Positions 1 to 32,000 of a stretch of 32,000 nt of DNA are shown here, one piece after another (positions within the stretch are counted from its first letter, which is position 1; every line of letters starts with the position of its first letter). The stretch comes from Calothrix sp. NIES-4105 (GTDB lineage Bacteria > Cyanobacteriota > Cyanobacteriia > Cyanobacteriales > Nostocaceae): NCBI GenBank assembly GCA_002368415.1, contig AP018290.1, positions 10,893,121 through 10,925,120 of the forward strand, read 5' to 3'. The position numbers were made by a program, and so were the translations under genes. Below the pieces are notes generated by a model. It saw only the letters and a list, made by a program, of their open reading frames with translations. It had not been told where the DNA came from and did not search any database.

Positions 1-2
1 GT

Positions 3-260
3 GAACTACCTTTTAACATCAAGTCTCCACGTTACGAAGACTATACCCGCGCGAAACTTGGTTTCCCTCAAATTATCTGGCAAACCGAAGTACGTCGCTA
101 TGTACCTCAAGAGAAGAAGGCAAAAGCTGGCGACCCAGCAAACTTCTTGTCTATGGCACAAAGTTACGGTCAAATTGGCAACAACCCACAACGCTTGTCA
201 CCTTTCAACGTTGACATTAACAAAGATGTTCCTTATCGTCAAAAATCTGGCATAAGATAA
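3..260 (+). CDS. cpcG: 3' end of a phycobilisome rod-core linker (CpcG-like) gene, truncated by the window start
   Basis: Frame 3 is open from the window edge to TAA at 258-260. It reads ELPFNIKSPRYEDYTRAKLGFPQIIWQTEVRRYVPQEKKAKAGDPANFLSMAQSYGQIGNN... The PFNxxxPRYxDYxxxKL ... NFLxMAxS pattern matches my memory of CpcG C-terminal regions. The frame-1 GTG ORF in the track (1..255) has an implausible protein composition. Confidence 0.5.
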   Translation, partial: ELPFNIKSPRYEDYTRAKLGFPQIIWQTEVRRYVPQEKKAKAGDPANFLSMAQSYGQIGNNPQRLSPFNVDINKDVPYRQKSGIR

Positions 261-296
261 GATACGCGCAAGCATAACATCTAAATATCTCAAAAA

Positions 297-338
297 TTGG
301 TCATTAGTCGTTAGTCAAGAATCAAGAGTTAAGAGTTG
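297..338. repeat. STRR-like degenerate tandem heptamers (TTGGTCA TTAGTCG TTAGTCA AGAATCA AGAGTTA AGAGTTG)
   Basis: Six consecutive 7-nt units read directly. GGTCATTAGTC (299-309) is the reverse complement of GACTAATGACC (373-383), giving a long-loop hairpin just 3' of the cpcG-like stop. Confidence 0.6.
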
Positions 339-503
339 TACTTCAACTTTCAGCTTTCGGTTCAGGGCTTGAGACTAATGACCTTGGTTTTTAGTGGAAT
401 TAGGAATGAATGAAAACCGCTTTGGTTCTCTAAAAATTAAAATCGTTTATACAACCAGAATAATATTCTCATGCTAATAATGTGTGAAGGTGCGTGTAAT
501 AGG

Positions 504-695
504 TCATGATTTTTTAGGCTTTTCAGCTTTCCAGGTTCCACCATATACATAAAATGGGTTATCCTGACTAATTTTCTGCCAGCAATCAGGACATGTAAAT
601 ACCCAATCACCTTCTTCTTCGTATTTAACTCGGTATAAAACTGGTGCAGGTTGATTACAAAAGTGACAAGGTTTGACGCGCGCTCTGACTGCCAT
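504..695 (-). CDS. Small zinc-ribbon protein (63 aa, CxxC...CxxC)
   Basis: The ORF has Cys pairs CHFC and CPDC about 20 residues apart and a basic tail. Its ATG lies 3 nt after the stop of the upstream 896-aa gene, so the two are probably co-transcribed. Confidence 0.6.
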   Translation of the reverse strand: MAVRARVKPCHFCNQPAPVLYRVKYEEEGDWVFTCPDCWQKISQDNPFYVYGGTWKAEKPKKS

Positions 696-698
696 ATT

Positions 699-3389
699 TT
701 AATGGATTAGTATCGCTAATAGTACTATTATAGCAAATTCAGTAAATAATACCCATTTGTAGACTTTAATTTGCGTTTCTAACTGTTGAAGCTTGAGTAT
801 TAAGTCATTTACTTTTGGTCGCTGTTGTTTTTGTATAAATGTAGCCAAATAGTCATGAACAAGTTGATAGCGGTCGTCAGGATTTGCTGGAATTAAAACA
901 ACAATACCTGCTGCCACAAAAATATTTAAGACTATATCTAATCTACTGTCATCTATGGACGCTTGTTTCCAATTGTTATCGATAATTCTTAACATAAAAG
1001 CTTGTTTCAACTCTGAATGAGTTTTTGCAGGACGAATTGCTTTTTCGTCAGTGAGTAGATATAATAATATTTCTGCTATTTTTTGGTTCTCTTGACCACA
1101 GTCTTGAATAACTTCTTGTAAATAGCGTTTGACTAATTCTTGTTTAGGACCTCGCTGTTGATACTGTAATGATGTTGTAATATTTTCAGTTTCTAATTGC
1201 GCGCAAACGATTTGTAACTCAATTGGTCTTACTTCACCAAATTTAATCGCTAAGTCATCTACTAAACGTTCGATTAAATCTAATTCTAAATGGTGTTTGG
1301 AACGTTCGCTCAGGCGCCCAATTAGTGTTTTTGCATCGTTTGTTGAAAAATTACCTATCTCATATAGAACATTTTTACTCAAAACATCATAACTAATAAT
1401 ATTCATGCTGGGGATACGAATACATTCGAGTAAGTAATGCAAATAATCTTTTCGTAGTGATAAAATAACTTTTACTCCTAGTAAATTTAAACACTCACCT
1501 AAAAAATGAAAAAATTCATATCGCTGCTGATAAGTATTGTATTTAAACAAAAACTCCTCAAATTGGTCAAAAATTAAGACAAATTTGAAATTATATGACA
1601 AAGAGTCTTTGAGAATTTGCAGAAGCTTATCTGGTGTCACTTTCTCGGCTTTTTTATGAATTTTTGTTAGTAACACAAATGCCAGCGCGTTATCTAATTC
1701 ATCAACCCAGCAGTCATAAAATCGCATGTATACTGTGGTGATATTAATATTCGTTTTAATACTTGTTCGTTTTAAAGCCGGAATTAACCCAGCTTGTAGA
1801 AGCGAAGTTTTTCCAACACCAGAATATCCATGAATAACGATAAGTTTATGGTCAGGACGCATAATTCGCTCTAGCAACTGCTTAATATCTCGTCCTCGTC
1901 CAGAAGCTGTAATTTCCGGCGCCAGTGTTTCTTCTAATGATTTATTATCTACAGCATCAATAATTTGCGTTAAACTTGACTGTGGTTTGCGCTGTGCTTG
2001 GATTTTTCCGGCGCCGATAAAAGCTCGAAACCCATATTGTTGTTCGGTCGAACGTATTTCTAACTTACATTTGTAAGCTTCTAAATAGCGGTTTTGTTTC
2101 CAATAAACAGCTTTTAATAGCTGTAAAATTTGAATATATTGAGTTGGATTATCTTTGTTACCAAGAGAACGTGCTTGTAACAAATGTTTGATTGCACGCA
2201 GCGTTTGTCCTAATTTGAGTTCTGAAGATGCAAGCAATAATAAATATAATCCTTGATATTGTGCTGCTGAATCTTTAGTACTATAATGTAGTGCTTGATA
2301 TGCATCTTGCTTTGCCTTCTTCCAAAGTCGTTTACTCAAAGCAACTTCTGCTAAAAAACCATAAACGCGCGCGACTCGTGTAGAGTTACCATAAAGCTTT
2401 TGTAAATCTAAAGCATTTAAAGCCAGACGCTGCAAATCATCCCAAGCTTCTAAACGTTTTAGTGTTTCACCCAGTGGGTTAATAAATTTAGCAACTAAAT
2501 TTAGATGATTCGCTTGGGTAAATATATCAATACACTGTTCAAAAAAGTTTCTTGCTTGCTTTAAGTACTCTTGTGAGTTTGTAATATTCTCAGATTTTTG
2601 ATAATAACACAAACCAATATGAAAAAATAGTATCCCTGCCCGCATTTTGTTAAATAATGTTTTTTCTTGCCTCCAATAAATTAAACTACGCTGGAGATAA
2701 TCTAAGGCAGTATCGATTTGATTATTTAAATAAGCTTGTTGACCGCGCACAAAATCTACACTTGCTTTTAATGAGGGTTGGAGATGGTACTGTATTAACT
2801 GTAAATCATGATGATATCTAATAATTTCGTTACGACGTATGTATCCTATTTGCCAACCAATAGAATATGTATCTGATGCTAGTGCAACTTCAAAAATAGC
2901 ATTGGTGTCACGTTTTAATTGTTTGATTAATTCATCAGTTGTAATGGTAAACTCTATCGTGGTAGCCCAACTTTCAAAATCACTCGATAATCGCATCATT
3001 TTGCCTAAAACTTCGTCGTTAACCCACAAAACAATCGGGAAATTAAAGTTTTTACGGAATTCTTCGCGAATTAGGTTTGTTGCAATTATTAATTGATCTA
3101 AATTTGATACATATTCTAAACCCCATACCATGATTGCTTTTGGTTGCTTTGGTAGAAGCGTTTCAATTTTTTTGTATAAGCTGTTTTCTGTTTTCCTCAA
3201 GCTGAGAACAGGAATTTTAGTGTTTGTTAGTTTTTGCAAGTGTTTGTACAGAACTGAGCGTAATAGAACGTAGTTACAGCGTGCTAGGATTAATCTGAAT
3301 TCATCTTGTGATGCTGAAAGTGTCCATGCTAGCTCTTCTAGCGCTGGAGAAATTTCTAGATGGGCGCCGATTTCTTTTTTGTCTGGCAT
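699..3389 (-). CDS. Multidomain TPR plus STAND-like P-loop NTPase with a C-terminal membrane anchor (896 aa)
   Basis: Walker A is KLIVIHGYSGVGKTSLLQAGLIPAL (aa ~515-540, nt ~1800-1830). Walker B is FVLIFDQFEEFLF (aa ~603-615). VRPIELQIVCAQL follows downstream, and these motifs are typical of cyanobacterial NACHT/nSTAND-type NTPases. Residues ~200-450 are TPR-like helical repeats. The N-terminal ~160 aa resemble an alpha/beta NTPase-like fold without a GKT loop (FRLILARCN ... PIVLWVNDE). The last ~20 aa (WVLFTEFAIIVLLAILIH) form a hydrophobic helix. Confidence 0.8.
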   Translation of the reverse strand: MPDKKEIGAHLEISPALEELAWTLSASQDEFRLILARCNYVLLRSVLYKHLQKLTNTKIPVLSLRKTENSLYKKIETLLPKQPKAIMVWGLEYVSNLDQLIIATNLIREEFRKNFNFPIVLWVNDEVLGKMMRLSSDFESWATTIEFTITTDELIKQLKRDTNAIFEVALASDTYSIGWQIGYIRRNEIIRYHHDLQLIQYHLQPSLKASVDFVRGQQAYLNNQIDTALDYLQRSLIYWRQEKTLFNKMRAGILFFHIGLCYYQKSENITNSQEYLKQARNFFEQCIDIFTQANHLNLVAKFINPLGETLKRLEAWDDLQRLALNALDLQKLYGNSTRVARVYGFLAEVALSKRLWKKAKQDAYQALHYSTKDSAAQYQGLYLLLLASSELKLGQTLRAIKHLLQARSLGNKDNPTQYIQILQLLKAVYWKQNRYLEAYKCKLEIRSTEQQYGFRAFIGAGKIQAQRKPQSSLTQIIDAVDNKSLEETLAPEITASGRGRDIKQLLERIMRPDHKLIVIHGYSGVGKTSLLQAGLIPALKRTSIKTNINITTVYMRFYDCWVDELDNALAFVLLTKIHKKAEKVTPDKLLQILKDSLSYNFKFVLIFDQFEEFLFKYNTYQQRYEFFHFLGECLNLLGVKVILSLRKDYLHYLLECIRIPSMNIISYDVLSKNVLYEIGNFSTNDAKTLIGRLSERSKHHLELDLIERLVDDLAIKFGEVRPIELQIVCAQLETENITTSLQYQQRGPKQELVKRYLQEVIQDCGQENQKIAEILLYLLTDEKAIRPAKTHSELKQAFMLRIIDNNWKQASIDDSRLDIVLNIFVAAGIVVLIPANPDDRYQLVHDYLATFIQKQQRPKVNDLILKLQQLETQIKVYKWVLFTEFAIIVLLAILIH

Positions 3390-3397
3390 TGATTATA

Positions 3398-3471
3398 TTA
3401 CCACAGAGACGCAGAGTACACAGAGAGATGTTTGTTTAATTAACCACAAAGGACACAAAGGACACAAAGAG
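3398..3471. repeat. Intergenic short-repeat block A (TTACCACAGAGACGCAGAGTACACAGAGAG) plus B (AACCACAAAGGACACAAAGGACACAAAGAG)
   Basis: Read directly. B (3442-3469) is the perfect reverse complement of 4888-4915. A (3398-3425) matches the reverse complement of 5073-5100 at 25 of 28 positions. Confidence 0.75.
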
Positions 3472-3485
3472 AAGAGAGAAGATGT

Positions 3486-4853
3486 TTATGGGTAGGAGGG
3501 GGTGTTTCCTAATTCTTCTGCTTCTACTAATATTGGGTTTACGTCAAACCAAGATTCTCCGTTATAGTTACGGTATTCAAAGACTAAACGACTGTGAATG
3601 AGTGTTTGATAATCTTTATCACCGCCAACTTTTTTGCGTATACGGACTTGTCGCAGTAGTTCCCATTCTTCATCACTAATTTGCATTGTCATTTCGTTAC
3701 GACGTGAACGAATTAAAGCTTCGAGAGTTTCTCTTTGCAAGGGCAGTGTTCTTTGGCGTTGAATCCAGTTATTTAATAATCTGAGTAAGTCACGTACATG
3801 ACCACCACTGATTTGACATAAACGGTCTAAACTTTGGGGTGTGTCAAAAATCTTGGTAATTCGACTCAAACGTGTACTAGCGTCTAAATTCGGAAAAGCA
3901 CGCACCAATACCATTTGACGCATCAATTCCATACCAGGTTCACAAGAACTACCATCTTTGTAATGTACTGGCACCATTGGCAACACTCTTGCATCTTCTG
4001 GAAAGCGTTGTGTCAAGTTGTTGTAGTCGTTCGAGAACTTCAGAGCTAACGGCATTGTGTAAACTACATGACAATTCAGCTTGGTTAAATACTCGCTTTG
4101 GTCGATAAATAAATACTCTTGTTGCGGGCGCCCCCAAGGTTTGACACGGTTGTCGATGCGGTCGAGGTTATCAATGATGACGACAAGTCCATTTTTACCG
4201 CGCTGTTTCAATTTTGTAGTGGCAGGTTCTAACAACTCTTTATTTATCGCTTCCAAAAGCTTACTCTTTTGAGGCGCCAGATACTGATTGAGTCGTTCGC
4301 GTAATGTTGCGTCACCTTTAGTTCGGGTTGTAATTTCGCCAATTCCCATAGAGAGTGAAAACTTTTCTTTCTCCGAGTTAAAACCGATATCACCAACAAC
4401 CGGAATTTTTGCTTTTATTCCTGTAACTTCTGCATTCAACACTTTCCAGGCGCCTTGAAGCAATTCCTTAAGTTTATCAGGTTCACTTAACTTGATATCA
4501 ATCAAACTCTGGCTGACGTGACGTGCAACAGCTAACAAAAAATCACCAATATCCACATCTGCCATTTCCAAGTCTTGACTTGACTCAAAGTAAACTACAT
4601 AAAAATTTTCTTTTTCCAATTCTGATTTTAGTTGCAATAATTCGGTAGATTTACCACAGCCAATATGACCAGTAAACAACTGACAAGTTGGTTCTTCAGG
4701 AGAGAAAAAAGTAATATTATCTCTCAACTCCTCAATAATCTTACCACCTCTAACCGTAGAAAAATCAATATATAACTTCTGGTCTTCAATATTATCAAAA
4801 GCCAGCGTTTTACTAGGATTAGTCGCCTGATAAAAAGCACGTAAATCTACCAT
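3486..4853 (-). CDS. P-loop ATPase (AAA+/ORC-like, 455 aa) of unknown function
   Basis: Walker A is CQLFTGHIGCGKSTELLQL (aa ~57-75). Walker B is GLVVIIDNLDRID (aa ~222-234). A sensor-like GGHVRDLLRLL follows, then a helical C-terminal region. No recognisable nuclease, protease or TIR effector domain was seen. Confidence 0.8.
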   Translation of the reverse strand: MVDLRAFYQATNPSKTLAFDNIEDQKLYIDFSTVRGGKIIEELRDNITFFSPEEPTCQLFTGHIGCGKSTELLQLKSELEKENFYVVYFESSQDLEMADVDIGDFLLAVARHVSQSLIDIKLSEPDKLKELLQGAWKVLNAEVTGIKAKIPVVGDIGFNSEKEKFSLSMGIGEITTRTKGDATLRERLNQYLAPQKSKLLEAINKELLEPATTKLKQRGKNGLVVIIDNLDRIDNRVKPWGRPQQEYLFIDQSEYLTKLNCHVVYTMPLALKFSNDYNNLTQRFPEDARVLPMVPVHYKDGSSCEPGMELMRQMVLVRAFPNLDASTRLSRITKIFDTPQSLDRLCQISGGHVRDLLRLLNNWIQRQRTLPLQRETLEALIRSRRNEMTMQISDEEWELLRQVRIRKKVGGDKDYQTLIHSRLVFEYRNYNGESWFDVNPILVEAEELGNTPSYP

Positions 4854-4887
4854 TCTTCTATTCCTTCCTTCCTTTCTTTCTTTCTTT

Positions 4888-4915
4888 CTTTGTGTCCTTT
4901 GTGTCCTTTGTGGTT
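4888..4915. repeat. Repeat B' (CTTTGTGTCCTTTGTGTCCTTTGTGGTT), inverted copy of 3442-3469
   Basis: 28/28 reverse-complement identity. It is preceded by a 30-nt polypyrimidine tract, (TTCC)n(TTTC)n, at 4861-4890. Confidence 0.75.
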
Positions 4916-5072
4916 CGTCATCTAAATAATTCAGTAAATTTACTGTTTACAAATACAAAAAAGCAATAATACTTACATAAAAAATAGATAATCAGAACTT
5001 AATATAATGGTATATTTTTTATCAGCAAAGTGTTTAGTCTATAAAAATACATCTACCAAAAATACTTCTCAT

Positions 5073-5100
5073 CTCTGTGTTCTCTGTGCCTCTGTGGTAA
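5073..5100. repeat. Repeat A' (CTCTGTGTTCTCTGTGCCTCTGTGGTAA), inverted copy of 3398-3425
   Basis: 25/28 reverse-complement identity by eye. Related units occur at 11851-11877 (CTCTTCTGCGTGTCTTTGCGGTAA) and 25061-25098 (CTTTGCGTCCTTAGCGTTCTTTGCGGTT). Confidence 0.65.
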
Positions 5101-5136
5101 AAATTATTTATACTCCTACAGAGGCATAAAGCAACA

Positions 5137-6399
5137 ATGAGTAACATTACCTGGGCGCCAAATAATAAACGGCGTATCAAAGCAATCTTAGTAGTTATCT
5201 TCGTATGGAGTGCAGTAAGTTTGATGCACTTAATACCCGTGACACAGTGGATAATAATAGGATTAACAATAATTTTGACTTGGCAAACAGTAAGAATGCT
5301 AGTTGCAAAACCAAAGACTTTGGCGCCATCCCAAGTTTTACCTACAGTATCAATCTTGGTTCCAGCTAAAAATGAAAGTGCTGTCTTACCTAATATCGTT
5401 ACAAGTTTGTTCAACCTAGACTATCCAGCTTCACATTTAGATATTTGGGTTATTGACGATGGCAGTACAGATGATACCCGTGAATGCTTGAATAAACTAC
5501 AGTCTCAATTTCCAAAACTACAAATTCATCATCGACAATTTTCTAGCGGTGGCAAATCTGGTGCCTTAAATGCAGTATTTCCACGTTCCACAGGGGAAAT
5601 TATCCTCGTTTGTGATGCTGACGCACAACTTCCCATTAATTTTCTACGGCAAATAGTTTTCCTGTTTGAAAACGAAACAGTTGGTGCTGTGCAGGTACGC
5701 AAAACGATTGCTAACCGTAATGTTAATTTTTTAACTCGCTGTCAGCAAATGGAAATGAGTTGTGATGCTTGGTTACAAACTCATCGTATTGCAGTTTTCG
5801 GAATGACTGAACTTAGAGGAAGTGGCATGTTTGTACGTCGCCATTTGCTAGAAAAATGTAATGGTTGGAATGAGAATACCGTTACCGATGATTTAGACTT
5901 GACATTTAGACTTTATATAGCAGGAAGCGAGATTGAATTTCTTACGGCGCCTACAATTGAAGAACAAGGAGTAATAACCTTAGAACAACTTTGGCATCAA
6001 CGCTATCGTTGGTCACTTGGAGGTTATCAACGCTATTTAGATTATTTTCCGCAAATACTAACTTTAGGTTGGAATAAAGAAATAGATTTATTATTATTTT
6101 TATTACTACAGTTTATCTTACCAATTGGACTAATCCCTGATTTACTCTGGACAATTTTTTATAGTCACCATCCAGTTTTGTTTCCGCTTCAAACTCTTCT
6201 GGGTATAATTCTTACTATTGGTTTCGTTACAAGCCTATACCAATTCCAAAATTTACGCGGATGGTCTTTATTATCGGCAACGCTTCAGGGTTCCGTTTAC
6301 ATGCTGCACTGGATACCAGTTATGATTCTGACCACTCTCAGCTTATGTATAAAGCCTTCTCAGTTAAACTGGGTAAAAACAGAGCATTATGGAAATTAA
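5137..6399 (+). CDS. Family-2 glycosyltransferase (processive, membrane-embedded type)
   Basis: N-terminal TM helices. GT-A motifs VSILVPAKNE, VIDDGSTDDT and VCDADA (DxD). QRYRW (QxxRW) is followed by several C-terminal TM helices. Confidence 0.85.
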   Translation: MSNITWAPNNKRRIKAILVVIFVWSAVSLMHLIPVTQWIIIGLTIILTWQTVRMLVAKPKTLAPSQVLPTVSILVPAKNESAVLPNIVTSLFNLDYPASHLDIWVIDDGSTDDTRECLNKLQSQFPKLQIHHRQFSSGGKSGALNAVFPRSTGEIILVCDADAQLPINFLRQIVFLFENETVGAVQVRKTIANRNVNFLTRCQQMEMSCDAWLQTHRIAVFGMTELRGSGMFVRRHLLEKCNGWNENTVTDDLDLTFRLYIAGSEIEFLTAPTIEEQGVITLEQLWHQRYRWSLGGYQRYLDYFPQILTLGWNKEIDLLLFLLLQFILPIGLIPDLLWTIFYSHHPVLFPLQTLLGIILTIGFVTSLYQFQNLRGWSLLSATLQGSVYMLHWIPVMILTTLSLCIKPSQLNWVKTEHYGN

Positions 6400-6401
6400 T
6401 T

Positions 6402-8117
6402 ATGCTAGACCTGATAATTAAAAACGGTTTAGTTTTTGATGGCTTAGGAACGGCGCCTGTTCGTAGAGATATTGGTATTCAAAATGGGCAAATTGTCAAT
6501 ATTGCTTCATCGTTATCTATGGAAGCACGTGAAATGATTGATGCAACTGGGTTATGGGTAACACCTGGTTTTATCGATATTCATACGCACTATGATTTAG
6601 AGGTGGAGATTGCACCAGGACTAAGTGAGTCGGTACGTCATGGTGTTACAAGTGTAGTCATTGGTAATTGTAGTTTATCTGTAGCAATCGGGGCGCCGCA
6701 AACACTAGCAGATATTTTTCAGCGAGTTGAAACGCTTTCGCATCGACTAATTGAGAAATGGTTACAAAAATCTGTATCATGGCAAACTCCCAAAGAATAT
6801 TTACAGCATTTACAGCAGTTGCCATTAGGACCAAACGTAGCTGCAATGTTTGGACATAGTGCATTACGCGCGCATGTTATGGGGTTAGAACGCAGTTTAA
6901 AAGCTCAACCCAATGAACAAGAGTTAAAAACAATGCGGGATATTGCAGCAACTGCATTAGATGCTGGATTTATTGGTATCTCTATAGATATGTTTCCTTG
7001 GCATTTAATGAGCGGTGAATGGAGTGGTTGTACGATTCCATCGCAACATGCTCAATATAAAGAATACGTAATGCTGGCAAATTTGTGTCGTCAACGCGAT
7101 AAAGTCTTTCAGGTAACTCCCAACTTACAGCGACTTGCTTCGTTTTGGGAGATCTTTCGGATGAGTCTAGGAAAAAAACCTTTGCGCTTAACTGTACTTT
7201 CTGCTTTAGATGCTGTCCACAATCGTAAACTATGGCGGGTTTTCTCTCCTATCCTATTTATTTGGAACCGAATATTTAGAGGTAATGTCCGGTTTCAAAC
7301 TTTAACAGAACCTTTTACTATTTATTCCAACGGTTCAGTTACACCTTTATTTGAGGAATTCAAGAGTGGTGTACAACTCAATGGTTGTCAGTCAAGAGAA
7401 GAACGTCAACAATTATGGACATCACCTGGTTTTGTTTCCCAATTTCGGCGAGACTGGTGCAATAAATGGCGCCAATCATTTCATCGTCAGTTAGAACATA
7501 TGGAAATTGTAAGTTGTCCGGATGAAATATTTTGGCAGGGACTAAGTTTTGCCGAAGTCGCGCGTAAAAAACAGCAAGACCCTTTAGATTTTTTTATCGA
7601 AGTACTACAGTTATATGATACAGATTTACGGTGGGTCGCAACAGGCGCCAATGACCGACTCGAACCAAGAAAAGCGATGATGGCACATCCCCATATTTTA
7701 CCTGGATTTACTGATGCAGGGGCACATGTGCGAAACCTAGGATATTATGATGGCGCCTTGTCTTTACTTAAACAAGCTGTTGTCACACAATTTATGAAAC
7801 CAGAAACAGCCATTCATCGTGTTACCGGAGAACCTGCTAACTGGTTTCGTTTAAATACGGGAGTAATCAAGATTGGCGCCAAAGCCGATATAATTATTAT
7901 CAACCCTGATGCACTCAATCAGCCAATTAGCCCACAGGTAGAAGTTTTTGACCCAGTACTCAATGGTGAACTGCGAATGGTCAAACGTGGTTCAGAAGAA
8001 ATTATCAAAGCTGTATATATAAATGGAGTAAAAGTTGTTGAGCAGGGTAAACCAAATGAACGCTTAGGTCAAGAACGACTGGGAACAGTTTTATATAATA
8101 AATTAACAAATGACTAA
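6402..8117 (+). CDS. Amidohydrolase of the D-aminoacylase / N-acyl-D-amino-acid deacylase family
   Basis: MLDLIIKNGLVFDGLGTAPVRRDIGIQNGQIVNI ... TPGFIDIHTHYD is the typical N-terminus and metal-binding HxH of this family. I chose the ATG at 6402, 2 nt after the GT2 stop. The 6261 start in the track would overlap the GT2 gene by 139 nt. Confidence 0.8.
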   Translation: MLDLIIKNGLVFDGLGTAPVRRDIGIQNGQIVNIASSLSMEAREMIDATGLWVTPGFIDIHTHYDLEVEIAPGLSESVRHGVTSVVIGNCSLSVAIGAPQTLADIFQRVETLSHRLIEKWLQKSVSWQTPKEYLQHLQQLPLGPNVAAMFGHSALRAHVMGLERSLKAQPNEQELKTMRDIAATALDAGFIGISIDMFPWHLMSGEWSGCTIPSQHAQYKEYVMLANLCRQRDKVFQVTPNLQRLASFWEIFRMSLGKKPLRLTVLSALDAVHNRKLWRVFSPILFIWNRIFRGNVRFQTLTEPFTIYSNGSVTPLFEEFKSGVQLNGCQSREERQQLWTSPGFVSQFRRDWCNKWRQSFHRQLEHMEIVSCPDEIFWQGLSFAEVARKKQQDPLDFFIEVLQLYDTDLRWVATGANDRLEPRKAMMAHPHILPGFTDAGAHVRNLGYYDGALSLLKQAVVTQFMKPETAIHRVTGEPANWFRLNTGVIKIGAKADIIIINPDALNQPISPQVEVFDPVLNGELRMVKRGSEEIIKAVYINGVKVVEQGKPNERLGQERLGTVLYNKLTND

Positions 8118-8523: not shown

Positions 8524-8536
8524 AATGATTGTATTG

Positions 8537-8669
8537 CTCTTAGGGACTTCCAAAAATTAAATTTTCCCAGAATGTGGGATGGGCATCCTGCCCGTCTCAT
8601 ATACAGGGCGGGCTTTTGACGCCCACCCCACAATAAAATTTTGGGTATTTAATTGGAAGTCCCTTAGAG
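8537..8669. mobile_element. MITE-like hairpin repeat (~133 bp) with imperfect terminal inverted repeats
   Basis: CTCTTAGGGACTTCCAA (8537-8553) pairs with TTGGAAGTCCCTTAGAG (8653-8669) at 15 of 17 positions. The internal core is CCCAGAATGTGGGATGGGCATCCTGCCCGTC ... GACGCCCACCCCAC. Core-related copies occur at 12721-12746, 14364-14389 (inverted) and 24516-24560. Confidence 0.55.
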
Positions 8670-9915: not shown

Positions 9916-9936
9916 AGACGTTACATGTAACGTCTC
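9915..9936. terminator. Perfect 22-nt palindrome GAGACGTTACATGTAACGTCTC between convergent genes
   Basis: Read directly. It overlaps the TAG stop of the dioxygenase and lies 35 nt from the stop of the convergent 259-aa gene. There is no U-tract, so it may be a dispersed hairpin repeat acting as a bidirectional terminator or RNA stabiliser. Confidence 0.45.
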
Positions 9937-24490: not shown

Positions 24491-24633
24491 CCGCTTACCT
24501 ATGAATATAAAATATCCCAGAATAAATTATGCCGTAGGATAGGCATCTCGCCTGTGCTACAAAAGAATTTATTTTATACTACTAGTGTGTAATATTATAA
24601 TACATGACATAAATAGATTTATATTTAACAGCT

Positions 24634-25041
24634 ATGGTGACGTACAAAAGCGATTTGAGCAATGTAGACTGGGATGAGATGAAAACGACTCTCAATAAAG
24701 ATGCCTTTGATAATGGCAGAACTCCCCAACAGCTTCAAGTATCTTTTCAAAACAGTTATGCAACTTGTATTGCTTATATTGATAACCGTATAGTTGGTAC
24801 TGCGCGCGTATTATCAGATGGTATTTGTAACGCTTATATAGTCGATGTTTGGACTTTCACACCTTATCGGCGCCAGGGTATTGCAAGTAAAATGATTACA
24901 TTGCTAATGGAAAAATTACCAGGGCAGCATGTATCTTTATTTACTGATGATGCTTTGGAATTCTATAAAAAACAAGGTTTTACTGAACGTGAAACCTGTA
25001 TGGAAAAAGTTGTTGGTAGATGGTTAGTAAATCATTTATAA
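24634..25041 (+). CDS. GNAT-family N-acetyltransferase
   Basis: 135 aa. The acetyl-CoA motif A is VWTFTPYRRQGIASKMITLLMEKL (R/QxxGxA), and the C-terminal segment is FYKKQGF. Confidence 0.8.
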   Translation: MVTYKSDLSNVDWDEMKTTLNKDAFDNGRTPQQLQVSFQNSYATCIAYIDNRIVGTARVLSDGICNAYIVDVWTFTPYRRQGIASKMITLLMEKLPGQHVSLFTDDALEFYKKQGFTERETCMEKVVGRWLVNHL

Positions 25042-25595
25042 AATTTTCAATTTGTTCTTCTTTTTCTTACTTTGCGTCCTTAGCGTTCTTTGCGGTTTAT
25101 TATAAACCTAGATAATTAATTCCGTATAAATAGTTCTTCTGTCAATACTTGGAGTTTGTATTGTGTTCACAACTATGAAGCACAGCAGAATGATAAACAA
25201 ATCGCAAAAACTATACTTAAGATAGATGTAATCTGTAAATGGTTAACCCGTGTTGATTCTCTAAAGTATTTTAATGAATACGCACGCTTCTTTCCTAGCT
25301 CACCGGAATGCACCATCAGCTTATTGAGAATAAAAAAGCTTATAATGCTTATTCTTACGTAGGGTAGGCTTAAGCCACAGAAGCGATTATTGAGAAGGTG
25401 TAAGATGTAAGCTAGCTCTTTACTAGCTTTAAGCTATAATTTAACACTTCTGACTACGAGGATTTAAAAGGATTTCAGTATAATTGGATTATGTCGTTGC
25501 AAAGCTTGATTTTCTCAATTGCGATTTTATCCTTGGAAGACGCTTTGCTAATGCTATATATTAATAAAAAATTTATCTTTACGGGAATCTCTCTG

Positions 25596-25877
25596 ATGAA
25601 ACGTGCTTTTCGCAAATATCACCGCGTAATCGCTATTATTGTTTCTTTACCTGTGGCTATAACTGTATTGACTGGGATAATTGTAACTATGGTTGGTGAG
25701 TGGGGTGTCAATATCGGACTAACTCGCCATGTCCTGTTAAGTATTCACACAGGAGAAATATTTCACCTCGAAGGGATTTACCCAATTTTAAATGGATTGG
25801 GGTTAATTGGGTTATTGGTAACGGGGTTGAGTATGTCAGGTTTGTTTGGTAAAGCCACCCGTCCACAAATAAAGTAA
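25596..25877 (+). CDS. Small PepSY-associated-TM-like membrane protein (93 aa)
   Basis: MKRAFRKYHRVIAIIVSLPVAITVLTGII ... SIHTGEIF ... GLIGLLVTGLSMSGL matches the RKxHRxxG...TG / H.G pattern of PepSY_TM helices. The ATG at 25596 is preferred over the 25491 start in the track. Confidence 0.55.
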   Translation: MKRAFRKYHRVIAIIVSLPVAITVLTGIIVTMVGEWGVNIGLTRHVLLSIHTGEIFHLEGIYPILNGLGLIGLLVTGLSMSGLFGKATRPQIK

Positions 25878-26619
25878 GTTTTAAATGTCTTGCTGCCAAG
25901 ATTGTCCTTTGTCTTCACTGCCAAAATTAATCCGCCAATAATAATTGTTTTTTTGATTCATGTTAATCATTTTTAACTTGCATCCACCAATGTAATTTTT
26001 ACAGTTTGTTTTAATTCATTAAATTGATATATATGTTGCTCCTGAAGCTTTTATCACGTCGAACGTGCGTATTGAATTGCAAGCAACCGTATAAACGATA
26101 AGTTAATAACTTATGAAGAAACAACTTAAATATACAAATTTCATTTATAGTTACTATTTATTCGTTAAAATTTTATTATTTACGATTTAATTTAGTATTT
26201 CACATTTGTGTCAACTATATCAAGTCTAAACGTTAATTTTAAATTAATTCTACATATTAAGCATAATGATCACAAAGTAAAAACTCGTAAATAAAGTATT
26301 TTTTATACTTAGTTTTGGATTGTACTTAAGTATACGCATAAAGATATATTAACTACTTTATACCAGCAGCGCGTTCGTTACTCCGTAGTGTAGTTTATAA
26401 CACCAAAGCCTAAATCTCACTAGTTATTGACTCGCACGCCTAAAAGGAGACACCATAAATAATCCGCAACAATTAACCTATTAGATCACTACCAAGACGC
26501 TTACTACCATCTAAAATTAAAAAAGGTTTGATTGTGGGTAAATTGCAGTAAAAAGAAGTAGCAAAATCTGATACCGTAACTAGTAAAAATAAATGTAATA
26601 TTTATTACATATAACCGCT

Positions 26620-29028
26620 ATGAGAATTATCGTAGTTGAAGATGATGATTTAATTGTTGCAGCGTTGGTCAAGGCTTTGAATGACCAGCATTATACTGTT
26701 GATTTTGCAACAGATGGTGAAGCCGCTTGGGAGCTTATGGACTGCTTTACCTATGACTTGATATTGCTCGATGTGATGCTACCTAAGCTTGACGGAATTA
26801 GCCTTTGTCGAAAATTACGCGCTATCGGCAACAAAACGCCAATTCTTTTATTAACAGCCCAAGACACTAGTACTAGTAAAGTAATGGGTTTGGATGCAGG
26901 CGCCGATGATTATCTTGCCAAACCTTTCGATTTTAAAGAATTATTAGCTCGTATACGCGCTCTACTGCGTCGAGGTGGTTCAAGCTTACCACCAATGCTT
27001 TCTTTTCATAACTTACAACTTGACCCTAGCACTTGCCAAGTTACCTGCGATGCTCAACTTTTACATTTAACACCTAAGGAATATAGTCTACTTGAGCTTT
27101 TTCTCCGCAATACGCAGCGAGTATTTAGTTGCGGAATGTTGATTGATCATCTATGGTCATTTGAAGAACCCCCCTCAGATGATACAGTACGGTCACACAT
27201 AAAGGGATTACGTCAAAAACTTAAAGCTGCGGGAGTAAAGAGTGATGTAATTGAGACAGTTTATGGTATCGGTTATCGCCTCAAAGGAACCGGGAAGGAA
27301 GCTACCAACACGCAAACGCGCAAACACAAAGAAGTCGAAAGGGAAAAAAAACTATTCATATGCGAAGCAAAACCACAAATCCATTCATCTGCGTTAACGC
27401 AATTTTCTGGAGGAAAGCAAAATCAAGTTGTAACTGGTGTCTCTCAAGTATGGGAGCAGGTTGCAGAAACTCTCAGCCAGCGTATTACTGTAATTGAGGA
27501 AGCCTTAAGTATTTTATTACAGAATAAACTGCTGAGTGAGGAAGCGCGAGCAAAAGTTAAGCAAGAAGCTCACAAGCTGGTTGGTTCGCTAGGGATGTTT
27601 GGTTCAGATAAAGGTTCTTATGTAGCTAGTGAGATAGAATCTTTGTTTGTAAATAAAGGGATGCTTGATAGTTCGCAAATCATCCGCTTTTCTAAATTAG
27701 TTGGTAGTTTGCGTGACTGTTTGCAAAGCATGAATGGCACAGAAATTCCTGACATGTCAGATGAAACATTCAATAATGGTCCTTTACTGTTGATTGTTGA
27801 TCAAGACACGGAATTTACAAGTAGTTTGATATCCTGTGCAAGTAGCTGGGGTACAAGAGTGCAAGTTACTCCTAACCCCATTGCAGCTAAGAAACTAATT
27901 GGAGATTTGTGTCCTGATGTTGTATTACTTGACCTTTCCTGTAGCGATACAGCAGAAAAAGCTCTTGGGTTATTAGTAGAATTAACTAGCCGTACACCTC
28001 CATTATCAGTTATTGTTACTACCGCACAAGATAGTTTGATTGACCGCGTTAAAATTGCGCGTCTTGGTGGACGTGGAGTTTTACAAAAACCTGTGTCAGA
28101 AACCCAAGTTTTAGAAGCAGTGACTCAAATACTGCAAAATAGTTGCTCACAAGAAGCGAAGGTAATGGTTATAGATGATGACCCGCAAATATTAACTGCC
28201 CTCGATACTTTACTTACACCTTGGGGTGTGAAAGTTTACAGCCTTGATAATCCTTCTCGCTTTTGGGAAATGATGACAGCAGTAAATCCCGATTTATTAA
28301 TTTTAGACGTAAAGATGCCTGAAGTTAATGGTATAGAATTATGCCAAGTTGTCCGCAGTGACGCGCGTTTCAGCGCACTACCAATTTTGTTTCTGACGGC
28401 ACAGAATGATACTAAGACAAGGCAGGAGGTGTTTGCAGCTGGCGCCGATGACTATATAAGCAAGCCAATTGTCAAAGTAGAATTAGTAACACGCATTCTC
28501 AACCGTTTAGAGAGAACTCGTCTATTAAAGAGTTTAGCAGAAACAGATGTTCTAACTGGTGTTGCTAATCGCTATAGATCTATCCAAGAATTGACTCGGT
28601 GTATACAGTGGAGCCAAAACTATCATCAACCGTTTTGTTTTGCAATTTTAGAAATAGATAAATTCAAGCAAATTAACCAGCAGTATGGTTATGCTACAGG
28701 AGATTCTATTTTATCTCGGTTGGGTAAAATTTTACGGTTAAATTTCCACTACGAGGATGTAGTTGGTCGTTGGTCTGGTACCGAATTTATTCTTGGAATG
28801 TGTGGTATGACTAAAGTGGAAGGTCAAAGGCGCCTATCTGAAGTCATTAAAAATCTACGCCAAGTACAGTTTACAGTTAATAGTGATAACCGTTTTAGTG
28901 TTAATTTTAATACAGGATTTGTTCAGTATCCTGAAGATGGTGCCGATATCGACACTTTATATAGAGTTGCAAGTGAAGCTCTCGAACGCTCAAAAGTAGC
29001 AGCACAAAATCGATTGTTAAATAATTAG
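26620..29028 (+). CDS. Composite response regulator: REC, OmpR-type wHTH, HPt, REC-like, REC, degenerate GGDEF (802 aa)
   Basis: REC1 is MRIIVVEDDD...LILLDVMLP...LLLTA...AKP. The wHTH is LTPKEYSLLELFL...VRSHIKGLRQKL...ETVYGIGYRLK. The HPt-like segment is QEAHKLVGSLGMFG. REC2 is LLIVDQD...VVLLDLS...VTTA...QKP. REC3 is VMVIDDD...LLILDVKMP...FLTA...SKP. The GGDEF domain is DVLTGVANRY...GDSIL...GRWSGTEFIL, with SGTEF in place of GG(D/E)EF. Confidence 0.9.
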   Translation: MRIIVVEDDDLIVAALVKALNDQHYTVDFATDGEAAWELMDCFTYDLILLDVMLPKLDGISLCRKLRAIGNKTPILLLTAQDTSTSKVMGLDAGADDYLAKPFDFKELLARIRALLRRGGSSLPPMLSFHNLQLDPSTCQVTCDAQLLHLTPKEYSLLELFLRNTQRVFSCGMLIDHLWSFEEPPSDDTVRSHIKGLRQKLKAAGVKSDVIETVYGIGYRLKGTGKEATNTQTRKHKEVEREKKLFICEAKPQIHSSALTQFSGGKQNQVVTGVSQVWEQVAETLSQRITVIEEALSILLQNKLLSEEARAKVKQEAHKLVGSLGMFGSDKGSYVASEIESLFVNKGMLDSSQIIRFSKLVGSLRDCLQSMNGTEIPDMSDETFNNGPLLLIVDQDTEFTSSLISCASSWGTRVQVTPNPIAAKKLIGDLCPDVVLLDLSCSDTAEKALGLLVELTSRTPPLSVIVTTAQDSLIDRVKIARLGGRGVLQKPVSETQVLEAVTQILQNSCSQEAKVMVIDDDPQILTALDTLLTPWGVKVYSLDNPSRFWEMMTAVNPDLLILDVKMPEVNGIELCQVVRSDARFSALPILFLTAQNDTKTRQEVFAAGADDYISKPIVKVELVTRILNRLERTRLLKSLAETDVLTGVANRYRSIQELTRCIQWSQNYHQPFCFAILEIDKFKQINQQYGYATGDSILSRLGKILRLNFHYEDVVGRWSGTEFILGMCGMTKVEGQRRLSEVIKNLRQVQFTVNSDNRFSVNFNTGFVQYPEDGADIDTLYRVASEALERSKVAAQNRLLNN

Positions 29029-29100
29029 TTAAATTATTTATAAATTGGCTAAATTGGCTGACAGCACCATATGTATTTGATGCCAACTAATGGAGGCTAT

Positions 29101-32000
29101 ATGCCGGAATTATTACATAACTTTTTTACTACAAACTACTTTATTCCTCACGGTCATTGTTATCTTTGGAAACCCGGATTGGTATCGCTGCATGTAACGT
29201 CTGATATGCTAATTGGTATAGCATATTATTCAATACCTATAACCTTATTTTATTTTGTTAAAAAGCGTAATGATTTACCTTTTAACTGGATTTTTCTACT
29301 ATTTGCAGCTTTTATTATTGCTTGTGGAACAACCCATTTTATAGAAATATGGACGCTTTGGCATCCAATTTACTGGTTATCAGGAACAATCAAAGCAATT
29401 ACAGCAGTAGTTTCAGCGTATACTGCAATTGTCATGGTATGTTTAATACCTCAAGCTTTAGCATTGCCTAGTCCAGCGCAATTAAAAGCAGCAAACCAAG
29501 AGTTACTACAGCAAATCATTGAACGTCAAAAAGTTGAGGAAGCTTTACGTCGCGCGCACGACGAATTAGAAATTAGAGTTCAGGAACGGACGACGGAGTT
29601 AGAGACAGCGAACCAAGCATTACAGACAGAAATTAACGAACGTAAACAAGCGGAATCAGCACTTTCTGAAAACGAGCAATTGCTGCGGACTGTGTTAGAA
29701 AACCTACCTGTAGGTATTTGGATTGCTGATAAAAATGGGCAAATCTTGCAAGCAAACCCCGCAGGACAGCAAATTTGGTCAGGCACCAAGTATGTTGGTA
29801 TAAACGAATGTGGCGAATACAAAGGTTGGTGGGAGTCTACAGGTAAACAGATTCAAATTGAGGAATGGGCATTATTTAAGGCAATTATGCGCGGAGAAAC
29901 TTCAATCAATGAAGTCATCAAGATTCAATGTTTTGATGGAAGTTACAAAACTATCCTCAATTCAGCCCTACCGATTTGGGATGCTAAACAAAATATACAT
30001 GGTGCAATTGTCGTTAATCAAGATATTACTAATATCAAACGCACAGAAGAGGAATTACGGCGCCAAAATTTACGCTCGCAACTCTTTGCAGAAGTGACGC
30101 TTAAAATTCGCACCTCTTTGCAAATTGAAGAAATTCTTCAAAACACAGTCACCGAGGTACAAAGAATTCTTCAAGCAGACCGGGTGTTAATTTTTAAACT
30201 TAATTCAGATGGTTCAGGAAGAGTTGTTCAAGAGTCAGTAGTTCCAGGTTGGCAAGTCACCCTTGGATTGGATATTTTTGATCCTTGCTTTGAACGAACA
30301 TATTTGCAAAAATACCGTCAAGGGCAAATTACTGCTATTACTAATGTTGAGGATGGTAGCATTCGACCTTGTTATGTTGAGTTTCTCCAACAATTTGGTG
30401 TTAAGGCAAATTTAGTTGTACCTATTTTTGTTAGGGAAAACCTTTGGGGCTTGCTAATTGCTCATCAATGTGAGGCGCCACGCCAGTGGACAGAGTTTGA
30501 GCTAACACTATTAAAACATTTAGCAGATCAAATAGGCATTGCTTTGTCCCAGGCTCAACTCTTAGAACAAGAGGTTGTACAGCGTCAAGAACTAATGTAT
30601 TCTCAACAAGAACTACGTGCCATGAGTGCTGCTCTCGAAAGCGCAGTAGAGGGTATTTCTCAATTAGATACTTCTAGCCGTTATATAAAAGTTAACCCAG
30701 CGTATGCCACAATGCTAGGTTATCAACCAGAGGAATTAATTGGCATGAAATGGCAGCAAACGCTTTACCCTGAAGACCAGGAAAAACTTATTGCTGCTTA
30801 CCATCAGATGCTGACTAACGGCAAAGCTGAAATCGAAGCTAGAGCTGTACGAAAAGATGGTTCGGTTTTTGATAAGCAAGTAGTAATGGTTAAAGCTCAT
30901 AACCCGCAACAGGAATTTATTGGGCATTATTGCTTTATGAAGGACATTAGCGACCGTCGAGAAGTAGAACGTCTCAAAGATGAATTTGTCTCGATAGTTA
31001 GCCATGAATTACGAACACCGTTAACTTCAATTTCAGGCGCCTTGGATTTGCTAGCAAGTGGTATCCTACAAACTCAACCTGAAGAGCGAGCGCGAATGTT
31101 AAATATTGCCGCCAATAATACAGACAGGTTGGTACGTTTAATTAATGACATTCTCGATATCGAACGTATCGAGTCTGGCAAAATTCAAATGACTAAACAA
31201 ATCTGCAATGCTGCCGACTTAATGACTCAATCAGTAGAAGTTGTAGAAGAAATGGCTCTTCAAGCAGAATTAATATTATCAGTTTCTCCAATAAGCGCGA
31301 ATATTTGGGCAGATAGCGACCGTATTATCCAAGTTTTCACTAATTTACTCAGCAACGCTATTAAATTTTCCTCAAGAGGCGCCACGGTTTGGTTAAGCGC
31401 AGAAATCCAGGAAGATAAAGTAAATCGCTCACCCTCTCCTTATATCCTTTTCAAGGTGCAAGACCAAGGACGAGGCATACCAGCTGATAAAATCGAATCA
31501 ATATTTGAGCGCTTTCAGCAAGTCGATGCTTCTGACTCACGCCAAAAAGGTGGAACAGGCTTAGGTTTAGCTATTTGTCGAAGTATTTTACAGCATCACG
31601 GCGGCTCAATTTGGGCTGAAAGCACATTAGGTGTAGGCAGTACTTTCTTCTTTACATTGCCAATGCTATCAGAACCCCACAACGATGTAGATTTTGAAGA
31701 ATTAGGCGCCCCATTAATATTACAGTGTGATGATGACCCCGATGTTAGGGCTGTAGTCCAAACCATGCTACAACGGCAGGGTTATCGCGTATTAACAGCA
31801 GCATCAGGATTAGAGGCAGTAGAAATGGCAGTTCAACAACATCCAGCCGTAATAATTCTTAACTTAATGATGCCCGGTATGGATGGATGGGAAACTTTAG
31901 CAGTTCTCAAACAGCGGACAGATACCCAAAACATACCAATTATAATTCTTAGTGGTTTGTTTCCCGATATAAACCAGGGTTTACCTACTGGTGTCAGCGA
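29101..32000 (+). CDS. Hybrid sensor histidine kinase: ethylene-binding-domain-like TM region, coiled coil, PAS, DXCF/CBCR-like GAF, PAS, HisKA, HATPase_c, REC (open at window end)
   Basis: It is not in the ORF track because it has no stop within the window. I translated ATG 29101 (GGAGG at 29092-29096) to 32000 and found no stop. The N-terminus FIPHGHCYLW...SDMLIGIAYYSIPITLFYFVKKRNDLPFNWIFLLFAAFIIACGTTHFIEIWTLW parallels Arabidopsis ETR1 ([53 protein letters not shown]), including the Cu-ligand Cys/His (CGxTH). The GAF domain is FDPCFERTYLQKYRQGQITAITNVEDGSIRPCYVEFLQQFGVKANLVVPI...LWGLLIAHQC. The H-box is SIVSHELRTPL, followed by an N box and GTGLGLAICRSIL. The receiver is ILQCDDDPDV...ILNLMMPGMDG. 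Confidence 0.9.
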   Translation, partial: MPELLHNFFTTNYFIPHGHCYLWKPGLVSLHVTSDMLIGIAYYSIPITLFYFVKKRNDLPFNWIFLLFAAFIIACGTTHFIEIWTLWHPIYWLSGTIKAITAVVSAYTAIVMVCLIPQALALPSPAQLKAANQELLQQIIERQKVEEALRRAHDELEIRVQERTTELETANQALQTEINERKQAESALSENEQLLRTVLENLPVGIWIADKNGQILQANPAGQQIWSGTKYVGINECGEYKGWWESTGKQIQIEEWALFKAIMRGETSINEVIKIQCFDGSYKTILNSALPIWDAKQNIHGAIVVNQDITNIKRTEEELRRQNLRSQLFAEVTLKIRTSLQIEEILQNTVTEVQRILQADRVLIFKLNSDGSGRVVQESVVPGWQVTLGLDIFDPCFERTYLQKYRQGQITAITNVEDGSIRPCYVEFLQQFGVKANLVVPIFVRENLWGLLIAHQCEAPRQWTEFELTLLKHLADQIGIALSQAQLLEQEVVQRQELMYSQQELRAMSAALESAVEGISQLDTSSRYIKVNPAYATMLGYQPEELIGMKWQQTLYPEDQEKLIAAYHQMLTNGKAEIEARAVRKDGSVFDKQVVMVKAHNPQQEFIGHYCFMKDISDRREVERLKDEFVSIVSHELRTPLTSISGALDLLASGILQTQPEERARMLNIAANNTDRLVRLINDILDIERIESGKIQMTKQICNAADLMTQSVEVVEEMALQAELILSVSPISANIWADSDRIIQVFTNLLSNAIKFSSRGATVWLSAEIQEDKVNRSPSPYILFKVQDQGRGIPADKIESIFERFQQVDASDSRQKGGTGLGLAICRSILQHHGGSIWAESTLGVGSTFFFTLPMLSEPHNDVDFEELGAPLILQCDDDPDVRAVVQTMLQRQGYRVLTAASGLEAVEMAVQQHPAVIILNLMMPGMDGWETLAVLKQRTDTQNIPIIILSGLFPDINQGLPTGVS

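Follow-up and report, generated by a model that had tools for sequence, protein, structure and literature searches.

In most cyanobacteria, the highly iterated palindrome (HIP) known as HIP1 (GCGATCGC) goes together with two methyltransferases, DmtA, for GATC, and DmtC, for CGATCG. The genus Calothrix harbors an anomaly in this respect, the first sighting of which is reportedly that of Robinson et al. in 1995. Here, we analyze a stretch of 32,000 nucleotides from Calothrix sp. NIES-4105 (contig AP018290.1, positions 10,893,121 to 10,925,120), hereafter the window, in which the hexamer GGCGCC takes the place of HIP1 throughout the host chromosome and is missing from a 7.2-kb block of six genes. 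We are highly confident that two things hold together: that GGCGCC in this window is the known Calothrix palindrome, made by substitution, present throughout a clade and old, and that the gap in its distribution marks a mobile element that arrived later.

HIPs occur at densities of 1,000-2,000 per Mb, and GGCGCC has been described as an alternative HIP in Calothrix PCC 7103 and D253 (Elhai 2015, Life 5:921, PMC4390886). In PCC 7103, GATC stands at 16% of expectation, the CGATCG methyltransferase gene is truncated, GACGTC, GACGCC and GGCGTC are under-represented, and two broader GrCGyC methyltransferases were found but none strictly specific for GGCGCC (Elhai 2015, PMC4390886). The replacement of HIP1 by GGCGCC is thus already published; what is worked out here is its spread through the clade, how old the sites are and how well they are conserved.

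The window is 37.0% G+C and contains exactly 37 GGCGCC sites, at positions 1313, 1918, 2010, 3363, 4127 and onward to 13460, and then from 22379 to 31705. An earlier reading of the bare sequence (the original prediction) had counted about 37 by eye, with coordinates that prove accurate to within 1 base. The number expected per strand is 1.3 under an order 0 Markov model, 1.8 under order 1, 5.2 under order 3 and 14.6 under order 4, which is the maximal order for a hexamer. The corresponding Poisson probabilities of observing at least 37 sites are 2e-40, 8e-35, 1e-19 and 6e-7, so the excess over the third-order model, which the original prediction had proposed as its yardstick, is upheld. GGCGCC has the highest ratio of observed to expected occurrences (O/E) among all hexamers of the window. 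In host DNA it reaches 1.53 sites per kb, with an O/E of 29 (order 0), 24 (order 1) or 7 (order 3), which makes it a short GC-rich palindrome of extreme O/E at the density of the HIP class. The enrichment is real and highly significant. HIP1 and CGATCG each occur 0 times in the 32 kb, and the predicted absence of HIP1 is thereby confirmed.

Outside the gap, the mean spacing between sites is 0.61 kb, close to the 0.66 kb first estimated, and the median is 0.415 kb. Another 270 spacings, drawn from the host parts of the window and from six related loci, do not exceed 2,973 bp, and their distribution fits an exponential (coefficient of variation 1.02, Kolmogorov-Smirnov p 0.21). All three reading frames are used (18, 7 and 12 sites), as had been predicted. 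The accompanying claim that coding and non-coding DNA alike contain sites fails, since 37 of 37 fall within long open reading frames (ORFs) and the 3.86 kb of host non-coding DNA contains none, against 5.9 expected if sites were uniform (P 0.0016).

To place the window among its relatives, we retrieved 77 loci encoding the BNR/sialidase-like protein that the window carries at 21929-24490, with one genome per species. Five close relatives, Dulcicalothrix desertica PCC 7102, Calothrix sp. PCC 7103, PCC 7716, HK-06 and the metagenome-assembled genome (MAG) FI2-JRJ7, encode BNR proteins that are 86-87% identical to that of the window in amino acid sequence. Their loci contain 35-44 GGCGCC sites per 22.5 kb and no HIP1 or CGATCG in 112 kb, and the O/E of GGCGCC is approximately 25 in the window and in all five. 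About 50 other Nostocales loci (917 kb) contain 487 copies of HIP1 and only 12 of GGCGCC, an O/E of 0.13. A sixth GGCGCC-type relative, MAG C42_A2020_038 (C42), has 22 GGCGCC sites and 6 HIP1 copies at its locus. All of the HIP1 copies, together with 9 CGATCG and 27 GATC, lie in a single block of 6.7 kb (locus L006, 1952-8676) that contains 0 GGCGCC amid GGCGCC-type DNA and encodes a TonB-dependent receptor, a periplasmic binding protein, an AraC regulator and a DUF2887 protein. Because its HIP1 copies and dense GATC are confined to this GGCGCC-free island, C42 is a GGCGCC-type genome with a HIP1-type island, and we rejected it as an intermediate between the two states. The block has the look of DNA imported from a HIP1-type cyanobacterium, with a chimeric MAG contig as a less probable explanation. 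With that island as the sole exception, HIP1 and GGCGCC are mutually exclusive over 78 loci.

A tree of the BNR gene has the topology (C42,(window,(the five))), and an uncultured Calothrix of the HIP1 type is sister to the whole group in 200 of 200 bootstraps. This topology maps the switch from HIP1 to GGCGCC to a single branch. GGCGCC expanded on one ancestral branch, after the split from the HIP1-type lineage and before the seven sampled GGCGCC-type species diverged, and HIP1 vanished on that same branch.

The closest described case is PCC 7103 itself. The window belongs to a sister species, with approximately 87% nucleotide and 86% amino acid identity to PCC 7103 in the BNR gene. The PCC 7103 locus (L055) is syntenic with the window and contains 35 GGCGCC sites in 22.5 kb. 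Both have the same hexamer at the same density (about 1.2-1.9 per kb here), lack HIP1 and CGATCG, hold GATC at roughly 0.15-0.2 of expectation and are depleted of the other GrCGyC forms. In the window, GATC has an O/E of 0.21 (14 observed, about 75 expected), GACGCC and GGCGTC together occur once against 3.4 expected (O/E 0.29; 5 against 16.7 in the five relatives), and GACGTC occurs 0 times against 1.9 expected (0 against 9.2 in the five). The prediction that a GC-rich alternative palindrome replaces HIP1 here is therefore borne out, and the composition matches Elhai's account of PCC 7103, the methyltransferase part aside. A difference from the PCC 7103 locus lies in a second hexamer, CGCGCG, with an O/E of 13 in the window and about 1 in PCC 7103. 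Compared with HIP1, GGCGCC is likewise a GC-rich palindrome that is spread by substitution rather than insertion, kept between related genomes and missing from mobile DNA; it differs in having 6 bases instead of 8 and no GATC core.

Depletion of GATC forms a gradient in the clade, with an O/E of about 0.4 in C42, 0.21 in the window and 0.12 in the five relatives. Many other restriction-type palindromes are strongly avoided in the window: GGCC occurs 2 times against 37 expected, and GGATCC, GGGCCC, CCGCGG, CCCGGG, CGGCCG, GCCGGC, GCATGC, GAGCTC, GTCGAC, GACGTC, CTGCAG, CCATGG, TGCGCA, ACCGGT, TGGCCA, AGGCCT and ACGCGT are each absent.

An excess of GGCGCC could in principle be a by-product of codon, dipeptide or amino acid usage, or of a dispersed repeat family. 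Every site is coding and half of them encode Gly-Ala, as such a by-product would have it. However, host genes contain 28 Gly-Ala dipeptides, and GGCGCC encodes 18 of them where chance would give approximately 0.25, since outside the motif GGC accounts for 12% of Gly codons and GCC for 8% of Ala codons in these genes. The two frames that do not encode Gly-Ala are used too, orthologs in other Nostocales encode the same peptides without GGCGCC, and the excess survives the fourth-order Markov model. We found no conserved sequence around the sites, whose flanks are unrelated, and sites without common flanks do not constitute a dispersed repeat. The unrelated flanks and the Gly-Ala codon-pair counts rule out codon bias or a repeat family as the cause, and we assign a by-product of any of these kinds a probability close to nil.

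Where the window has GGCGCC, the orthologous codons of HIP1-type relatives are ordinary Gly-Ala pairs (GGT GCA, GGA GCA, GGT GCT), and some encode other residues (GGA ATT, AGC ACC). No insertions or deletions were found at GGCGCC sites in the orthologous alignments. Ordinary codons at the orthologous positions show that the sites were made by point substitutions, which mostly turned Gly-Ala codon pairs (GGN GCN) into GGC GCC and in some cases changed the amino acid. To assess their conservation, we aligned approximately 8 kb of the window to the five relatives at 83-87% nucleotide identity and followed 15 window sites in each. GGCGCC is conserved in 66 of these 75 comparisons (88%), compared with 41% for other hexamers (33-41% when GC-rich). 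Of the nine variants, eight are GGTGCC or GGCACC, the products of a CpG transition. Thus, GGCGCC sites are preferentially kept and decay mainly by C-to-T change at the central CpG, as would be expected if the cytosine there were methylated. None of the 22 GGCGCC columns in the alignments is unique to the window lineage, and the sites thus predate the radiation of these species.

We next consider the gap in the distribution of the sites. The GGCGCC-free interval at 13466-22378 measures 8,919 bp, and the probability that the largest gap among 37 uniformly placed sites would be at least that long is 2.4e-4. At the rate of 1.6 sites per kb outside the gap, the Poisson probability of finding 0 sites is 6e-7 for the gap and 9e-6 for the 7.2-kb element within it. 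The element would contain 11 sites at host density and 0.3 from composition alone; it contains 0, and its five Gly-Ala dipeptides are all written in other codons. G+C content does not change across the gap (0.33-0.39 in the element and 0.33-0.42 in host DNA, in 1-kb windows). The prediction that neither GGCGCC nor GCGCGC occurs in this interval of about 8.9 kb is supported by exact counts. That the gap coincides with an element carrying a recombinase, DnaB and an insertion sequence is true in part: the element lies inside the gap, and the gap is wider, extending over roughly 1 kb of host sequence (13466-14431) and over the BNR gene's 3' end. A comparison of the window with itself revealed a 269-bp direct repeat, with copies 89% identical, that flanks the element. 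The features of the window are as follows.

1-14431, no strand: left part of the host chromosome, with 21 GGCGCC sites (1313-13460) and 13 alternating-CG loci that are 6 or more bases long
Genes of the left part: nSTAND/NACHT NTPase, KAP-type ATPase, GT2 glycosyltransferase, amidohydrolase, Mpo1-like and PhyH-like proteins, FHA protein, Uma2 (11957-12535), small-molecule S-adenosylmethionine (SAM) methyltransferase (12746-13741) and the DUF6888/DUF6887 pair
14432-14699, minus strand: 269-bp direct repeat, left copy, in which the BNR gene's 3' end is present as a frameshifted pseudo-copy
14700-21920, minus strand: mobile element of 7.2 kb, with 0 GGCGCC, 0 CGCGCG or GCGCGC, 0 HIP1, 0 GGCC and 2 GATC (17.9 expected)
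14825-16153, minus strand: DnaB-family replicative helicase, cargo of the element, its start overlapping the end of the DUF6262 gene by 8 nucleotides
16146-17018, minus strand: DUF6262 protein (Pfam match), third gene of the recombinase trio
17011-18603, minus strand: large tyrosine recombinase, Tn554 TnpB-like, with an N-terminal zinc ribbon and a Phage_integrase match
18584-19765, minus strand: small tyrosine recombinase, Tn554 TnpA-like, with a Phage_integrase match
19824-21308, minus strand: IS200/IS605-type TnpB of the RNA-guided endonuclease family (OrfB_IS605 and guided_TnpB models)
21302-21721, plus strand: IS200/IS605 Y1 transposase TnpA (PF01797 at E 2.5e-41, NF033573)
21921-22189, minus strand: 269-bp direct repeat, right copy, which forms the functional 3' end of the BNR/sialidase-like gene at 21929-24490
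22190-32000, no strand: right part of the host chromosome, with 16 GGCGCC sites (22379-31705) and 7 alternating-CG loci
Genes of the right part: BNR/sialidase-like protein, GNAT protein, multi-receiver GGDEF response regulator and a long ORF truncated by the end of the window

Five relatives in which the flanking gene order is preserved (loci L002-L005 and L055) lack the element at this site. In PCC 7102, FI2-JRJ7 and PCC 7716, the counterpart of the Uma2 gene lies 0.4-1.4 kb past the BNR gene. Units related to the block occur elsewhere. On plasmid pSTA7437.01 of Stanieria cyanosphaera PCC 7437 (locus L083, 1704-8314), the same six genes stand in identical order and orientation, and the DnaB at the same position is 63% identical to that of the window element. 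Nostoc PCC 7524 carries a unit of 5.68 kb (locus L079, 6754-12429), present in copies that are 99.96% identical, with the trio of recombinase and DUF6262 genes and the TnpA/TnpB pair but no DnaB; the pair lies on the other side of the trio, in the same cyclic order. The trio itself occurs in Nostoc 7524, a contig from ENA, Stanieria and PCC 7716. Empty sites in relatives and related units elsewhere show that the six-gene block is a mobile element gained in the window's own lineage.

The two adjacent, overlapping tyrosine recombinase genes, followed by an overlapping third small gene, are the arrangement of Tn554-like elements, and the presence of a Y1 TnpA together with TnpB is that of the IS200/IS605 family. 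The nearest homolog of the large recombinase is only 76% identical, and one homolog is named "Tn554, transposase B" by its source database. At the DNA level, recombinase genes on Enterococcus and Staphylococcus plasmids show weak similarity. The DUF6262 protein had no match in NCBIfam. Like Tn554 of Staphylococcus, the element has an adjacent recombinase pair, a third small gene and no terminal inverted repeats, our search having found none that convincingly pair the element ends. It differs from Tn554 in adding DnaB and the IS200/IS605 genes within a conserved six-gene unit. It also differs in being bracketed by a 269-bp direct repeat of its target, whereas Tn554-type insertion leaves no target duplication; the flanking repeat looks more like the outcome of Campbell-type or integrase-type integration. 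A TnpB gene that travels with a Tn554-like recombinase trio may define a distinct family of cyanobacterial mobile elements. A separate insertion of the IS200/IS605 pair is unlikely, given the six-gene order in Stanieria and the 5.68-kb unit in Nostoc 7524. The TnpB proteins are only 37% identical, however, compared with 64-71% for the recombinases.

Several observations concern the surroundings of the element. The interval between Uma2 and the element, which in the window contains the SAM methyltransferase gene and the DUF6888/DUF6887 pair (12746-14332), lacks these genes in the five relatives, and in FI2-JRJ7 112 bp of the methyltransferase gene survive as a remnant. Run DRR315833 contains a Logan contig that matches the window at 100% identity over 4,586 bp and ends within the left repeat copy, at 14496, as expected for an assembly break at a repeat. 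Scans of the window for tRNA genes and Rfam families found nothing.

The original prediction took the absence of GGCGCC as evidence that the element is recently acquired foreign DNA. Foreign origin is well supported by the empty sites and the Stanieria unit; recency is not. Since about 8 kb of alignment shows no GGCGCC gained by the window lineage, absence of the motif dates the arrival only as later than the expansion. Having no GGCGCC is normal for unconverted DNA, and it is the host that is unusual. Six relatives served to polarize the changes between the two repeat copies: 17 are derived in the left copy, evenly distributed among codon positions (4, 6 and 7) and accompanied by the frameshift, and 8 in the right copy, mostly at third positions. 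This decay suggests approximately 6-7% neutral divergence since insertion, or about 0.3-0.45 of the window branch, and argues against a very recent insertion. Alternatively, the left BNR fragment may have arrived already diverged on a circular intermediate.

The gap could also reflect active avoidance rather than late arrival: if most Nostocales restrict DNA at GGCGCC, an element passing from host to host would have been purged of it along with other restriction-type palindromes. The element does have a GATC O/E of 0.11 and no GGCC, and its relatives in Nostoc 7524, the ENA contig and Stanieria have a GATC O/E of 0.1-0.3, no GGCC and no HIP1, whatever the host; the GGCGCC O/E of 0.13 in other Nostocales points the same way. 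Yet composition alone predicts only 0.3 sites in the element, so that zero requires no avoidance, and the empty sites in relatives make the insertion lineage-specific in any case. Furthermore, the related trio on a plasmid of PCC 7716 carries 2 GGCGCC, one of them by a change of GTTGTACC to GTGGCGCC. That plasmid is itself rich in the motif (48 sites in 34 kb), and resident copies thus do begin conversion to GGCGCC. We consider avoidance unlikely to account for the gap in place of late arrival, while avoidance of palindromes by the element family may contribute to the lack of the motif. We also attempted to infer a donor for the element from its avoidance of GATC and GGCC and rejected the attempt, given that the relatives avoid both in HIP1-type hosts as well and the avoidance is thus a trait of the family.

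A second pair of palindromes is enriched in the same host DNA. The window contains 11 GCGCGC and 17 CGCGCG, that is, 28 overlapping occurrences at 20 loci (48, 677, 1199, 2366 and onward to 29551), more than the 18 or so first reported, and none lies in the gap or the element. Host DNA has 17 CGCGCG against 1.3 expected and 11 GCGCGC against 1.8, a 6- to 13-fold enrichment. The non-palindromic hexamers GGCGCG and CGCGCC are not enriched (2 observed, 2.8 expected), which rules out a single degenerate motif, SGCGCS, and makes CGCGCG a separate palindrome. CGCGCG is also frequent in C42 (11 against 0.9) and on the PCC 7716 plasmid (12 against 1.7). It is weakly enriched at the chromosomal loci of the five relatives (1-7 against about 1.2 expected), and it is avoided in other Nostocales (O/E 0.28). 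Unlike those of GGCGCC, its positions are mostly lineage-specific. Aligned sequence covers six alternating-CG sites of the window. Five of these are not shared with the five relatives, and at two C42 has the site or nearly so. Our literature search found no report of CGCGCG enrichment. It is conceivable, if rather doubtful given the small numbers, that HIPs are made in short enzyme-specific episodes, with GGCGCC an old palindrome that is frozen and maintained, and CGCGCG a younger one that is still expanding. If so, a comparison of gene content between CGCGCG-rich and CGCGCG-poor members of the clade could identify the enzyme that writes HIPs, and the mosaic of GGCGCC-type, HIP1-type and motif-free DNA would serve as a dated barcode of imported DNA.

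How the sites were made and kept can be addressed by analogy with better-known systems. Repair by the Dcm/Vsr system of Escherichia coli is said to have been proposed by Bhagwat and McClelland in 1992, and by Merkl et al. in the same year, to raise the abundance of CCWGG and lower that of CTWGG. A methylation-dependent mismatch-repair ratchet has been proposed for HIPs (Elhai 2015, PMC4390886). Applied to the window, a cytosine methyltransferase would mark GG(m)CGCC, and mismatch correction at or near methylated sites would favor the methylatable sequence. Near-cognate hexamers would then ratchet towards GGCGCC wherever the encoded protein tolerates it. DNA that entered after the expansion keeps only the chance density of about 0.3 sites per 7 kb. 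The 7.2-kb element is such later DNA, inserted at the 3' end of the BNR gene in the window lineage and still unconverted, and its integration left the 269-bp direct repeat of the target. Taken as a whole, an alternative HIP with a methylation-linked driver and a later, unconverted element is the best explanation we have, and on balance we think it probable. For methylation-linked biased repair specifically, our confidence is lower and stops a little short of probable, and it is nonetheless the most likely mechanism. The resemblance to Dcm/Vsr lies in the proposal that repair biased towards methylatable sequence shapes the abundance of methyltransferase sites, and in the main variants of GGCGCC being the deamination products GGTGCC and GGCACC. 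The differences are that the effect on GGCGCC is far larger (approximately 25-fold) and that depletion of the T-containing variants is not seen.

The main rival to this mechanism is natural selection, which would keep GGCGCC as a methylation-dependent self tag for the uptake or recombination of homologous DNA in transformation. A tag of this sort, acting much as uptake sequences do in Neisseria and Haemophilus, is the function currently favored as a candidate for HIP1. GGCGCC would then be the private tag of the clade, and the element would lack it because it was never under that selection. The uptake sequences of Pasteurellaceae (uptake signal sequences, USS) and Neisseriaceae (DNA uptake sequences, DUS) resemble GGCGCC in occurring about once per kb with random spacing, in being lineage-specific and tolerated in coding frames, and in missing from recently imported DNA; they differ in being neither palindromes nor methylation sites. 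Conservation at 88% against 41%, conversions that change an amino acid and are tolerated, and the Poisson-like random spacing all suit a tag of this kind. According to the summary in a 2026 preprint, transformation of Synechocystis 6803 and Synechococcus 7002 is raised by HIP1 combined with DmtC methylation, and an argument has been made for purifying selection on HIP1 (Xu et al. 2018, as cited there); the preprint argues from the effect of methylated HIP1 on natural transformation for a role in DNA uptake or recognition. On the other hand, the window lineage gained no new GGCGCC over about 8 kb, non-coding DNA has none, and an uptake role for GGCGCC would rest on the analogy with HIP1. We regard selection for a self tag as possible but less likely than biased repair.

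Biased repair with a later element has its own difficulties. No DNA methyltransferase gene is found among the genes of the window, the product of 12746-13741 being a small-molecule SAM methyltransferase. GGTGCC and GGCACC are not depleted (O/E about 1.1), and we rejected a simple Vsr-type drive from T:G to C:G, for which their depletion is expected, and kept the repair model in its general form. Replenishment of the two hexamers by decay of a parent that is enriched 25-fold could mask such a depletion. The high conservation of GGCGCC suits selection on the sites equally well. A drive that is purely mutational does not obviously predict the absence of non-coding sites; the higher AT content of non-coding DNA and its smaller supply of near-cognate precursors temper the point. 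Lastly, the element family avoids GATC and GGCC in every host examined, so part of the element's lack of palindromes may reflect avoidance instead of youth. Selection and biased repair are not mutually exclusive, and sequence data alone cannot separate them.

The host DNA contains further repeats. A 39-bp inverted repeat with 95% identity (3442-3480 and 4878-4915) brackets a KAP/STAND-type ATPase gene at 3486-4853 and may mark a small mobile or invertible cassette. Direct similarities of 87-91% link 8492-8538 to 24859-24905 and 8684-8717 to 24953-24986, joining the region after the Mpo1-like gene to the GNAT gene, and each includes a GGCGCC. In HK-06, the GNAT gene adjoins the amidohydrolase/Mpo1 block, and the GNAT fragment at 8.5 kb is probably the remnant of a rearrangement. 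A GC-rich intergenic inverted repeat at 8570-8640 (GGGCATCCTGCCCG ... CAGGGCGGGC ... GCCCACCCCACA) could be a terminator or else belong to a small dispersed repeat.

Where HIP1-type palindromes come from and what they do has been a question in cyanobacterial genomics for 30 years. With the replacement by GGCGCC already published, the window opens no new question, but it shows that the replacement is a trait of at least seven species, that the switch from HIP1 can be set on a single branch, and that the GGCGCC sites are old and are actively kept. Against this background imported DNA stands out sharply, as a motif-free transposon in the window and as a HIP1-type island in C42. For annotators of these 11-Mb genomes, the absence of GGCGCC is a simple marker of import, and the clade is a good natural setting in which to ask what methyltransferase or repair activity writes such motifs.

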